64,000 nucleotides of DNA from an uncultured bacterium (GTDB lineage Bacteria; Krumholzibacteriota; Krumholzibacteriia; Krumholzibacteriales; Krumholzibacteriaceae). Positions within the stretch are counted from its first letter, which is position 1. The number at the start of each line of letters is the position of its first letter. Location of the stretch: NCBI GenBank assembly GCA_963747385.1, contig CAVVEY010000019.1:69048-133047 (forward strand), read 5' to 3'. The notes under the pieces are model-generated. The model was not told the DNA's origin and searched no databases. It was given only the letters and a program-made list of their open reading frames with translations. Shown here in pieces: positions 54,090 to 61,277 of the stretch. The translations under genes and the position numbers were made by a program.

Positions 54090-55556
54090 GTGACATCTCT
54101 CACAAAACGGGCGACCGTTCTCATCTTCTGCAGGATCATGAACTACGGCGTCATGTTCCTCTCCCCCGTCTTTCTCGTGCGGATCTTCAACAAAATTGAG
54201 GTCGGACAGTACGGCGAATTCATGCTCTATGCGGCATTGATCGCGGGCATCATCGAATTCACGATCAACACGAATTTGATATACTTCATCCCGAAGTACC
54301 CCGATCGCGAGAGGCAGAGCGTCACCCACACCGCGCTCCTTATTTTCATCACGAGCTTTATCGGATTGATCGCCGTCTACATCTTCAAGGGCCTTATTTT
54401 CGCGCGAACCAGCTACGATTTCATCCTTCCCCTCATCGCGTACATCTTCTTCTTCCTCAATTTCGAATTCTTCGAGAACTATTGGCTCGGGAAGAAGCGA
54501 ACCGATTACGTCCTTTACTACTCCTCGGGGCGAGTTGTCGTGCGGACCGCCGCCCTCATTATCTCCGCCTACGTCAGCCGCGACGTCATGACCGTCATTC
54601 GAACGCTGATCGTCGTGGAATTCGTCAAATGCCTTTTCGTTTTCGCGATGCTCCGCGGCGTGCTGACGAGGCGCCTCGATCGCGCGCTGCTCAGGGAGCA
54701 GCTCAGATTCATTATCCCCCTCGGTTCGGCCGGCGTGCTTGCCCTCATCAACACCCAGCTCGCGAATCTCGTCATCTCGATCAAGATGGGGGTGGAGCGT
54801 CTCGCGCTCTACACGATCGGCGGGAAGCAGATTCCGATCATCAATATCGTGCGGTCGAGCGTCATGGACGTGCTCTTCCCGGAAATGGCGCAGATCGGGG
54901 ACGCGGAGAGACTCCAGCTGTGGCGGCGGGCGAACGTCGTTTTCTGCTTTATGGTGTTTCCCGTCTTCGCCGTGTTCTTCTGCTACGCGCGCGTTTTCGT
55001 CGAAACGCTCTTCACCGCTGACTATCTCGCGGTCGTACCGCTCTTCAGAATCTACCTCATGTTGATGGTCATCCGATGCTTCGAAATGGGTACGCCGCTC
55101 CGAACGATCAATCAGAACAAGTATTTCATCTTCGGAGGCGTCCTGGATCTCTCGATCAATATCGGGTTCATCCTCCTTCTCTACCGGCCGGTGGGTTTTA
55201 CGGCGCCGGCGCTTTCGTTCGTTCTCGCCGAATGCGCCATCGCCGTGTACCTGGGAAGCAGAATCCTCCATTTCTACCGCATCCCCTTGCGGGAACTGTT
55301 TCTGTGGAAGAGGATCTTCATCATCCTCTGCTGCGCGGTGCTTGCGCTGCCCGCTCTCGTCGCGGGCAGATGGGTCAACCTCAACCCCGTCATCCGGGCG
55401 GTGTCGTTCTCGACCCTGTATTTCGTCGTCTACTACATCGCGATACGGCGGCTCAAGATTGACGACGTGGAGCTTCTCGTGGATAAGCTGGGGAGAAGAT
55501 TGAGCGCCGCGAAAGCCCGGATCGGCGAGAGGACCGCTCCGCCGCAAGGGCGCTAG
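54090..55556 (+). CDS. wzx: Oligosaccharide flippase (Wzx/MOP superfamily polysaccharide biosynthesis protein)
   Basis: 488 aa with ~12-14 TM helices and a PST-family pattern. Sits in a glycan cluster. Confidence 0.7.
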   Translation: MTSLTKRATVLIFCRIMNYGVMFLSPVFLVRIFNKIEVGQYGEFMLYAALIAGIIEFTINTNLIYFIPKYPDRERQSVTHTALLIFITSFIGLIAVYIFKGLIFARTSYDFILPLIAYIFFFLNFEFFENYWLGKKRTDYVLYYSSGRVVVRTAALIISAYVSRDVMTVIRTLIVVEFVKCLFVFAMLRGVLTRRLDRALLREQLRFIIPLGSAGVLALINTQLANLVISIKMGVERLALYTIGGKQIPIINIVRSSVMDVLFPEMAQIGDAERLQLWRRANVVFCFMVFPVFAVFFCYARVFVETLFTADYLAVVPLFRIYLMLMVIRCFEMGTPLRTINQNKYFIFGGVLDLSINIGFILLLYRPVGFTAPALSFVLAECAIAVYLGSRILHFYRIPLRELFLWKRIFIILCCAVLALPALVAGRWVNLNPVIRAVSFSTLYFVVYYIAIRRLKIDDVELLVDKLGRRLSAAKARIGERTAPPQGR

Positions 55557-56302
55557 AAACGGAATTCCCGACGAACAACCTTCAAGCCGACGCCCTCCAC
55601 CGCGCAGGCCGCGGCGAAGCGGGGAACGGTCTCGACGTCGACGAGAGTCCATAAACGCTCGCCCTCGGCGGCATCCACGCCGGTCGCGATGGCCAGAGGT
55701 TCTCGCGCGTTCCCCGAGACGTCGAACGAAGCGAGCGGAAACGAGAGCCCCAGGCCGCTCGCCTTGATGCACGCTTCCTTGCGCGTCCATATGGCGGCAA
55801 ACAGCGAGGCGCGCGCAGCTTCGGGCGCGGAGAGAAGCACGGCCCCCTCGCGCGGCGAGAAGAACCGGCGAACGATCCCCATGTCGAACGGGCGCTCGCC
55901 GATCGACTCGATATCGACGCCGATTTCGCGTCCTTTCGCCACGGCGATGAGCGCGCGATCGGCCGCATGGGACACGTTGAAATGGATTTCGCCCCGGCCG
56001 GCCTCCGGCGAAAGAAACGGCTTCCCGTGAGGACCGTACGAGAACCTGATCTCCGCCGGCGCCGCGCCCGCGTAGCGCGAGAGAATCGTCCGCAGAATGC
56101 CCCGCGCCGCGACGAAACGTTTTCCATGGAGAGAAACGACGAACCGTGCCGCCCGCTCTCTTTCGTCGGGGGACAGAACTCCGTCGAGGTTTCGAAGTCG
56201 ATTCTCATCGATGTCGAGTGAAACGGCCCACACGTGGGCCTCTTCTTCGAGGAGCCCGAACGGTTCCCGCGCGAAGGAGAGCCGTGCCGATTGCTGGCTC
56301 AT
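55553..56302 (-). CDS. 4'-phosphopantetheinyl transferase (Sfp type)
   Basis: GVDIESIGE and FAAIWTRKEACIKASG motifs. 249 aa. Confidence 0.8.
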   Translation of the reverse strand: MSQQSARLSFAREPFGLLEEEAHVWAVSLDIDENRLRNLDGVLSPDERERAARFVVSLHGKRFVAARGILRTILSRYAGAAPAEIRFSYGPHGKPFLSPEAGRGEIHFNVSHAADRALIAVAKGREIGVDIESIGERPFDMGIVRRFFSPREGAVLLSAPEAARASLFAAIWTRKEACIKASGLGLSFPLASFDVSGNAREPLAIATGVDAAEGERLWTLVDVETVPRFAAACAVEGVGLKVVRREFRF

Positions 56303-60331: not shown

Positions 60332-60371
60332 GTGCCTCGCCCTCCTTGGTAGTCCCCTGGTTGCCGCGCCG

Positions 60372-61277
60372 TTACGAAAGAGGAATCTGCTCGAGCTCGA
60401 GATAGACGCCGCTCTTCTCGAAGACTCTGGCTCGAATCGCGGAGACGAGCGCCATGATGTCGCGCGCCTTCGCATGGCCGCGGTTCACGATGAAATTTGC
60501 GTGGAGTCCGCTCACCTCCGCGTCTCCGACGCGCATCCCCTTGCAGCCGGCCTCCTCGATGAGGCGTCCGGCATAATCTCCGCGCGGTCTCCTGAACACG
60601 CTTCCGGCGCTCGGAAGATCGAGCGGATACTTGCCCTCACGGTCCTTGAGGAACGAATCCACCATCCTGACGCTCGCGGCGGCGTTGCCGCGTCCGAGCC
60701 TGAATTCGGCGCCGAGAATAAACCAGTCCGTTCCGAGAAAGATGCTCCGGCGATACCCGAACGAGCATTCCGCCGCCGCAAACGTCCGCCTCCGCCCCGT
60801 CGAGGTCAGCACCTCGACGCGGCTCAAAAACTCCGCCGTCTCGGTGTCGCGCGTGCCCGCGTTCATGACGACCGCCCCGCCGACCGTTCCCGGAATGCCC
60901 GCGAGCGGCTCGAGACCGGAGAGCCCGCGAGCCGACGCCGCCCGCACGAGATCGAGAAGCGGCACGCCGGCATCGGCCCTTACCCTGCCGCCGCCGAGAT
61001 ACAATATCCGTGCCGACGCGGCCGCCGTTCTCAGCACGACTCCGTCGATTCCCTCGTCAGGCGCAATGACGTTCGAGCCCGCGCCGATAACGACGAGCGG
61101 AACGCCCTCGCCCTTCACGAAGGAGTACACGCGGGCGGCATCGTCGGCATCCCGCGGGATTACGAGAAGCTCGGCTTTGCCGCCGACATGATACGTCGTA
61201 TGACGCGCCAGGGGTTCTCCCGGAAGGACCTTCCCCGACACGTTCTTTCGAATCTTCTGAATGAGTTTCCTGTCCAT
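60372..61277 (-). CDS. murB: UDP-N-acetylenolpyruvoylglucosamine reductase
   Basis: FAD-binding GGGSNV-like region (VIGAGSNV) and a MurB C-terminal domain. 301 aa. Confidence 0.9.
   Translation of the reverse strand: MDRKLIQKIRKNVSGKVLPGEPLARHTTYHVGGKAELLVIPRDADDAARVYSFVKGEGVPLVVIGAGSNVIAPDEGIDGVVLRTAAASARILYLGGGRVRADAGVPLLDLVRAASARGLSGLEPLAGIPGTVGGAVVMNAGTRDTETAEFLSRVEVLTSTGRRRTFAAAECSFGYRRSIFLGTDWFILGAEFRLGRGNAAASVRMVDSFLKDREGKYPLDLPSAGSVFRRPRGDYAGRLIEEAGCKGMRVGDAEVSGLHANFIVNRGHAKARDIMALVSAIRARVFEKSGVYLELEQIPLS

Follow-up and report, generated by a model that had tools for sequence, protein, structure and literature searches.

A nonribosomal peptide synthetase (NRPS) gene on the minus strand of a 64,000-nucleotide stretch of DNA from an uncultured member of the Krumholzibacteriaceae (contig CAVVEY010000019.1, positions 69,048 to 133,047; the whole stretch is referred to below as the window) appears split into about twenty reading-frame pieces. 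We put the probability at roughly 80% that the gene is intact in the organism, the frame breaks being single-base consensus errors of a noisy long-read-type assembly. The breaks were judged to be errors because the open reading frame (ORF) is uninterrupted in all orthologues from short-read assemblies. The gene encodes a single module with a condensation (C), an adenylation (A), a thiolation (T) and a thioesterase (TE) domain, and was delimited as follows.

56318-60328, minus strand: NRPS gene (C-A-T-TE), about 1330 codons; from a three-frame read-out, frameshift-aware alignment and Pfam on the stitched protein

The start codon is the ATG at 60328, with an AAGGAGG site about 13 nt 5' of it, and the stop codon is the TGA at 56320-56318. 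An earlier note on this DNA had given 55553-60475 as the extent of the NRPS and an adjacent phosphopantetheinyl transferase (PPTase). The region holds, but not its upper bound, as the ORF that starts at 60475 is spurious and overlaps the 3' end of the neighboring murB.

Frame breaks were counted by a custom frameshift-aware protein-to-DNA alignment against the intact orthologues P0001, P0004 and P0015; plain tblastn, which fuses segments across shifts, undercounts them. On intact loci at 41-100% identity this alignment made no false calls. With the three references, 19-21 frame breaks and no in-frame stops were found in the NRPS between 59998 and 56372. The true number is about 22-25, given that some 2-nt skips are paired 1-nt events (e.g. 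at 58715 and 56384), and at least one compensated indel pair is concealed inside NGKLDARDRFPSPE. The earlier note had described at least eight reading-frame segments; the fragmentation is real, but this figure was a big undercount. Ten breaks form a first cluster at 59049-58429, and a second one, at 57650-57135, contains from six (P0004 as reference) to eight (P0001 as reference). Inside the two clusters the spacing is about one break per 60 nt, break-free stretches of 950 and 780 nt separate the groups of breaks, and the density over the 4 kb is about 5 per kb. Within the C domain a single break occurs at 59998, and the C-terminal edge of the domain has two more (59046 and 59014). All events are of +/-1 nt, the corrected length equals that of the orthologues and no larger deletion was found, a combination which, with the lack of stops, fits the signature of consensus errors. 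One of the pieces, a 290-aa ORF at 57628-58500 (minus strand), is found verbatim in a public protein collection (P0300; NCBI and ENA contig of 204,742 nt), so the deposited annotation treats the NRPS pieces as separate genes. Exact-sequence look-ups with the PPTase and the MurB of the window matched no record.

By searching the stitched sequence against 5.8 billion proteins, we found at least 16 full-length C-A-T-TE relatives, 1326-1332 aa in length and 63-74% identical over 100% of the query. The organism-named members of this family are from Candidatus Krumholzibacteria metagenome-assembled genomes (MAGs). In at least seven related lineages assembled from short reads the NRPS is intact (1326-1330 aa) and the gene order is the same. 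At three of these short-read loci (L003, L014 and L017) there were no breaks in either the NRPS or its flanks, and at the other four (L001, L012, L013 and L015) the NRPS was in a single frame. The earlier note had proposed looking for an intact gene at orthologous loci, and an uninterrupted one is what every short-read relative examined contains.

Of 397 columns that are invariant in the family, the corrected protein differs at nine (2.3%), and two of these fall in the compensated indel pair, while intact orthologues treated in the same way (leave-one-out) were changed at 0.7-8.7% of the invariant columns. Judged from these columns, there is no relaxed selection on the corrected NRPS. This bears on the alternative that the gene is a true pseudogene, inactivated in this lineage and decaying by frameshifts while its neighbors stay under selection, which we consider very unlikely. 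Such decay is suggested by breaks 12 times denser than in the flanking genes, with the excess ending at the gene borders, by a comparable excess in two related MAGs (L010 and L007, see below), and by the fact that loss of the NRPS does occur in the class (L011, L019 and L021). Among the marks of a pseudogene, however, only the disrupted frame was found, and neither stops (none in-frame in about 1330 codons), nor deletions above 1 nt, nor an excess of changed invariant residues; the number of changed columns is within the range of functional orthologues, the catalytic motifs are all intact and the length is orthologue-like. About 20 neutral indels are expected alongside about 100 or more substitutions and several stops, going by bacterial mutation spectra from mutation-accumulation studies, and these were not seen. 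Breaks of the same kind are also present in the essential gene alaS and, in L007, in murB, and each short-read orthologue examined is unbroken. Of the two possibilities raised in the earlier note, a locally poor consensus is therefore favored, and a decaying relic is unlikely in view of the absence of stops, the exclusively +/-1 nt events and the retained invariant residues.

Breaks also occur elsewhere in the window. Counted by the same frameshift-aware method, the flanking genes have four in 11 kb, namely two in an M24 peptidase (at about 61846 and 62000) and two in an 853-aa protein (at about 52428 and 53104); none were found by this alignment in the Wzx flippase, PPTase, MurB, Wzy_C, methyltransferase and 664-aa proteins. 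In the other 60 kb of the window, a codon-usage hidden Markov model combined with junction inspection gave about 6-8 breaks. Both results agree with the background of one break per about 9 kb that had been noted earlier. The gene for alanyl-tRNA synthetase (alaS, 4018-6680, minus strand) has its frame split near the N-terminus, with the junction at about 6427, and as this is an essential single-copy gene the break is a direct sign of consensus indel errors in the window. A Wza-like polysaccharide export protein (2454-3918, minus strand) is split at about 2762, where the upstream frame stays open for 343 nt beyond, and a glycosyltransferase (763-1859, minus strand) at about 1489, with the upstream frame open for 484 nt beyond; both splits are probably further indel errors. 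Taken together, the breaks in alaS, the exporter, the glycosyltransferase, the M24 peptidase and the 853-aa protein indicate that the whole window is error-prone.

Similar breaks were found in relatives from the Microflora Danica (MFD) MAGs, which were assembled by Flye from Nanopore reads only and polished once with Medaka (PMC12313526). Four loci belong to such MAGs, i.e. L007 (CAWBAN010000001.1), L010 (CAWJVO010000002.1), L011 and L020, of which L011 is without the NRPS. The NRPS has seven breaks in L007, 12 in L010 and one in L020. Flanking genes of the MFD loci are also broken, including murB in L007 and, with two breaks, the 853-aa gene in L011, and the break positions are non-homologous between MAGs. 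The window thus shares with the indel errors of Nanopore-only MAGs the isolated +/-1 nt breaks in well-conserved genes, essential ones included. It differs in that breaks are far denser in the NRPS than in the background of this contig, which calls for a local cause.

This excess is one of several points that weigh against consensus errors. The NRPS has 4.5-5.5 breaks per kb, compared to 0.13-0.37 per kb elsewhere (binomial P = 1e-7 against the flanks), so that the excess, confined to the NRPS, is 12-fold relative to the flanking genes and about 35-fold relative to the whole window; uniform error predicts none, and gene-specific relaxed selection would predict just such a local excess. The NRPS is likewise enriched for breaks in L010 (12 against one in the flanks, P = 8e-5; NRPS at 12212-16245) and weakly so in L007 (seven against five, P = 0.017; NRPS at 12204-16257), whereas L020 has no such excess. 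At the same locus, L011 (9971-12394), L019 (3296-8408) and L021 (3430-8542) lack the gene. No motif or homopolymer rule was found at the NRPS break sites, whose contexts are mixed (short homopolymers, no homopolymer and occasionally GATC). Furthermore, the errors are inferred from the comparison of sequences and were not seen in reads.

We infer that low local depth, or mixed haplotypes across a variably present gene, would have concentrated the errors over the NRPS. Another, weaker side-possibility is that the recurrent collapse of the consensus over the NRPS in three long-read MAGs reflects hypervariability or a presence/absence polymorphism in the populations. A related alternative is a mixture, in which most breaks are consensus errors while one or a few are genuine, either as an inactivating frameshift or as a segregating polymorphism. 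The NRPS would then fail to work in some members of the population at least, and this heterogeneity would in turn degrade the consensus. It agrees with such a mixture that the error excess is local to a gene variably present among relatives, and that Nanopore-only MAGs from complex soils show measurable polymorphism and microdiversity (PMC12313526). Since no single break is distinguishable from the others and the conservation of the corrected protein is normal, we hold both the mixture and a partial loss of function to be improbable, and retain consensus errors in an intact gene.

Three other origins of the breaks were rejected. Sequence context as the cause of the clusters does not agree with the mixed contexts, nor with break positions that are non-homologous between the window and the loci L007 and L010. 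Reads recruited from other NRPS genes via conserved motifs do not fit, as the most conserved A-domain motifs, A5-A8, are clean. Programmed frameshifting or phase variation would require the decoding of some 20 shifts, in either direction and at sites without repeats, which is not possible.

After frame correction, the full catalytic set of C, A, T and TE motifs was found in the window. Pfam, run on a hand-stitched translation of the minus-strand frames, placed Condensation at residues 6-444, AMP-binding at 469-819, AMP-binding_C at 878-953, PP-binding at 986-1048 and Thioesterase from 1074 (PF00668, PF00501, PF13193, PF00550 and PF00975, in this order). Both the C-A-T-TE order on the minus strand and the leading position of the C domain, as read in the earlier note, are thereby borne out. 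The domains, with coordinates on the window, are listed below.

58997-60313 (limits +/-15 nt), minus strand: condensation domain (PF00668), with HHLLLDAFS at 59881-59907

57470-58936, minus strand: adenylation domain and its C-terminal subdomain (PF00501 and PF13193)

57172-57388, minus strand: thiolation (carrier) domain (PF00550), with FFDLGGHSL at 57271-57297

56321-57134, minus strand: thioesterase domain with a Cys-Asp-His triad (PF00975), from a residue-by-residue HMMER alignment to AB3403 (4zxh), Skyxy-TE and the NocB TE

Among the A-domain motifs are A3 (YTSGSTGQPKG, 58448-58480), FDVSVYEI (58321-58344), NGYGPTETT (58033-58059) and A10 (PNGKLD, 57444-57461), together with YKTGD and GRVDHQVKVRGFRVEPGEIE. 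The domain set and the motifs are those of a type I NRPS termination module; its uninterrupted ORF is what the window lacks. By alignment to GrsA-PheA, with the GrsA code correctly recovered as control, the Stachelhaus code of the A domain was read as DVYYLGGICK, which is found in the window and in 12 out of 15 orthologues.

The most conspicuous residue of the TE is the cysteine in its GGRCLG motif (56874-56891, with the Cys codon TGC at 56880-56882), a motif common to all six of the orthologues inspected. In a PDB sequence search this Cys aligned with the catalytic Ser of Skyxy-TE and the NocB TE and with the Cys of AB3403 (GGWCFG), in line with the earlier assignment of Cys to the nucleophile position. 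AB3403 was the only solved TE to align across the whole domain (query 11-260 to chain 1060-1312). The Asp of ILDSYW (56790-56807) lies 27 residues past the Cys and, on sequence alignment only, matches the Asp at position I in AB3403 (IVMIDTR), and the His of PATHMDIL (56392-56415) aligns with the AB3403 His.

According to the structure papers, AB3403 has a nucleophilic Cys and keeps its Asp at position I, while in TEs of the ObiF/SulM type the Asp has moved to position II, ObiF1 has Gly at position I, and SulM has a Q-C-N motif around the nucleophile. The TE of the window, as far as the aligned residues tell, follows AB3403 and is not of the ObiF/SulM beta-lactone/beta-lactam type. The earlier note had associated Cys-type TEs with the offloading of strained rings, and an ObiF/SulM-type enzyme making an N-acyl-alpha-amino-beta-lactone or a similar compound would agree with the Cys nucleophile and with the small, ObiF1-like C-A-T-TE architecture. 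Against this stand the unrelocated Asp, which aligns at position I, the Arg-Cys-Leu in place of the Gln-Cys-Asn of SulM, and the absence of both the ObiF1 and the SulM TE from the 32 PDB TE matches at E <= 0.01. In enzymes of the ObiF/SulM type, the A domain of the last module selects an amino acid with a beta-hydroxyl or beta-amino group, and the A-domain code found here is presumably unlike the published codes for Thr, Ser or 2,3-diaminopropionate. As Cys is moreover common in this TE clade, strained-ring chemistry is highly improbable here.

How common it is was seen from an exhaustive HMMER search with a clean TE fragment against 1.84 billion cluster representatives. In the best 149 proteins, 209 TE-like stretches were identified, with Cys at the nucleophile position in 83 and Ser in 114; among proteins of single-module size, Cys occurred in 12 out of 20. 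The view in the earlier note that Cys TEs are rare is not upheld for these nearest relatives. As a separate observation, 58 of the 149 representatives (P0121-P0269) carry two tandem TE-like domains, often one with Cys and the other with a non-nucleophilic residue (Asp, Gly, Ala or Gln) in its place, and tandem pairs of an active and a degenerate TE thus seem to be common in the clade.

The closest described system is AB3403 of Acinetobacter baumannii (ABBFA_003403, the A1S_0115 orthologue; PDB 4ZXH/4ZXI). It is likewise a stand-alone C-A-T-TE termination module (1320 aa, compared to 1326-1330 aa) with a GGxCxG Cys nucleophile, an Asp at the canonical position I and a His, and a PPTase is encoded in its cluster. 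The overall similarity is modest (507 bits), and the C-A-T part is closer to LgrA or McyB, so the two are not orthologues. The Acinetobacter cluster is regulated by quorum sensing, includes an acyl-CoA synthetase, an acyl-CoA dehydrogenase, an acyl carrier protein (ACP) and a resistance-nodulation-division (RND) pump, and has been connected with the lipopeptide Ac-505; AB3403 prefers glycine. No such partners (acyl-CoA synthetase, acyl-CoA dehydrogenase, ACP or RND pump) were found in the flanks of L001 and L003 or at 43.9-64 kb of the window, where the neighbors are instead murB, Wzx, Wzy_C, glycosyltransferases and sugar-modifying enzymes. The NRPS has the Cys nucleophile of the TE in common with ObiF1 (obafluorin) and SulM (sulfazecin), and with ObiF1, which N-acylates one amino acid, also the single C-A-T-TE module; it differs from them by the Asp at position I, by the lack of Gly there, of Q-C-N and of a fused MbtH-like domain. 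The NRPS of the window is thus an ordinary addition to a known kind of enzyme, and Cys is normal for its group.

As to how the enzyme would work, its C domain scored 194-334 bits against those of McyB, BacC, PvdL, SrfA-C and TycB, and 66-99 bits against LCL types. The top solved matches are DCL or lipo-initiation types, which take D-configured or fatty-acyl donors, and this pattern agrees with a C domain of a DCL/starter-like kind, dependent on an external donor. Turning to the A domain, its code appears to be closest to the published codes for aromatic or large hydrophobic residues, which is a lead only, and to be unlike a Gly code. In the proposed mechanism, murB, the NRPS and the PPTase would form an operon-like row inside the polysaccharide biosynthesis locus, and the adjacent Sfp-type PPTase would prime the T domain. 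The A domain would load an amino acid, the pocket suggesting a large hydrophobic or aromatic side chain, and the N-terminal C domain, with its intact HHxxxD and its DCL/starter-like affinity, would acylate the amino group from an external thioester donor, most likely a fatty-acyl or another acyl carrier thioester. The product would then move onto the TE cysteine as a thioester and leave it either through hydrolysis or by being handed to an acceptor.

That the gene keeps its place within a polysaccharide locus suggests an acyl-amino-acid product linked to the envelope, and the hint at an aminoacyl or lipoamino-acid decoration that the earlier note drew from the glycan context is plausible. A more specific version, in which the NRPS functions in an envelope-polysaccharide pathway and its Cys TE transfers the N-acyl-aminoacyl group not to water but to a glycan or a lipid-linked sugar acceptor, is tentative and, on our assessment, rather unlikely. 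It derives from the row murB - NRPS - PPTase beside Wzx, Wzy_C, glycosyltransferases and DUF6541-like proteins, which is kept down to 41% NRPS identity. Two negative results count against the mechanism proposed for the enzyme: no match to the code DVYYLGGICK was found in the literature, and neither an ACP nor an acyl-AMP ligase was found in the conserved flanks (L001 and L003) or at 43.9-64 kb of the window.

The genes around the NRPS are the following.

55553-56302, minus strand: Sfp-type 4'-phosphopantetheinyl transferase, 249 aa, intact; Pfam ACPS (PF01648) and AASDHPPT_N (PF22624)

60372-61277, minus strand: murB (UDP-N-acetylmuramate dehydrogenase), intact; Pfam and NCBIfam NF010480 (315.9 bits, cut-off 259)

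54090-55556, plus strand: Wzx-type polysaccharide flippase, 488 aa, intact; Pfam Polysacc_synt_3 and Polysacc_synt

51543-54049, plus strand: DUF6541-like membrane protein (distant relation) of about 853 aa, conserved neighbor; three-frame tblastn and frameshift-aware alignment

61435-62606, plus strand: M24-family peptidase, conserved neighbor, with 92% identity to its L003 orthologue, on which Pfam/NCBIfam was run

The NRPS stop is separated from the PPTase start by 15 nt, and murB lies 44 nt upstream of the NRPS start in the same direction. The PPTase has the size (about 230-250 aa) and the halves, an N-terminal AASDHPPT-like and a C-terminal ACPS one, of a group II enzyme. Its top NCBIfam match is HetI-like, at 169 bits and under the cut-off, and it is 68% identical, without frame breaks, to the PPTase in the same position in L003. 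Identity to the L003 counterparts is 83% for MurB and 82% for Wzx, the latter gene being convergent with that of the PPTase. The whole region at 43.9-64 kb is a polysaccharide locus, which includes a Polysacc_synt_2 dehydratase, a family 2 glycosyltransferase (GT2), a B12-binding radical S-adenosylmethionine (SAM) enzyme, an epimerase, a methyltransferase and a Wzy_C protein besides the DUF6541-like membrane protein, Wzx and the M24 peptidase. The radical SAM enzyme (48275-49642, minus strand), situated between the epimerase and a 681-aa membrane protein, is a kind of tailoring enzyme unusual in glycan clusters. No second NRPS was found in the 64 kb by tblastn with an orthologous NRPS. The surroundings given in the earlier note, i.e. 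an Sfp-type PPTase beside the NRPS, flanking Wzx and murB, no other NRPS nearby and a glycan cluster around them, were recovered by Pfam, NCBIfam and tblastn, and the polysaccharide context is conserved across the class. Farther away lie a large bacterial signal recognition particle (SRP) RNA, then four clustered tRNA genes and, further on, a group of three (22109-22374, 22395-22751 and 34571-35283, all on the minus strand), and all of these score above the Rfam gathering thresholds.

The contigs of P0001 and P0004 share the order M24 peptidase, 664-aa protein, murB, NRPS, (PPTase), Wzx, 853-aa protein and glycosyltransferases. By scanning GTDB genomes with the Wzx protein, we obtained 16 loci, none of them identical to the window (Wzx identity at most 79% in the scan), and the NRPS was found at or near the Wzx locus in nine. 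The arrangement of Wzx, PPTase, NRPS and murB is maintained down to 41% NRPS identity (L017). A scan of metagenome contigs with the stitched protein returned distant NRPSs only, at 33-45% identity. In L011, L019 and L021, murB, the 853-aa gene and Wzx occur together without an NRPS between them, and the NRPS is consequently dispensable in the class. In L020 it is found beyond the 853-aa gene, beside an OPT transporter, and is 69% identical while the flanks are 42-52% identical. The absences and the shifted position in L020 mark the NRPS as a variably present, mobile element of the locus.

A gene with the appearance of a dead biosynthetic relic in a long-read MAG is, then, very probably alive, and local clusters of indel errors can badly mislead pseudogene calls and inventories of biosynthetic gene clusters from Nanopore-only MAGs. 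Frame correction guided by orthologues, combined with a check of invariant residues, tells error from decay without reads. A Cys thioesterase is an unreliable flag for beta-lactone or beta-lactam chemistry, because a large uncharacterized AB3403-like clade uses Cys with a canonical triad. The only feature of the NRPS that could lead somewhere new is its placement in a polysaccharide locus. The conservation of a single-module NRPS in such a locus, in a phylum that is uncultured, gives a modest lead that may point to an acyl-amino-acid product linked to the envelope, and could mean an NRPS-made decoration of a cell-surface polymer.

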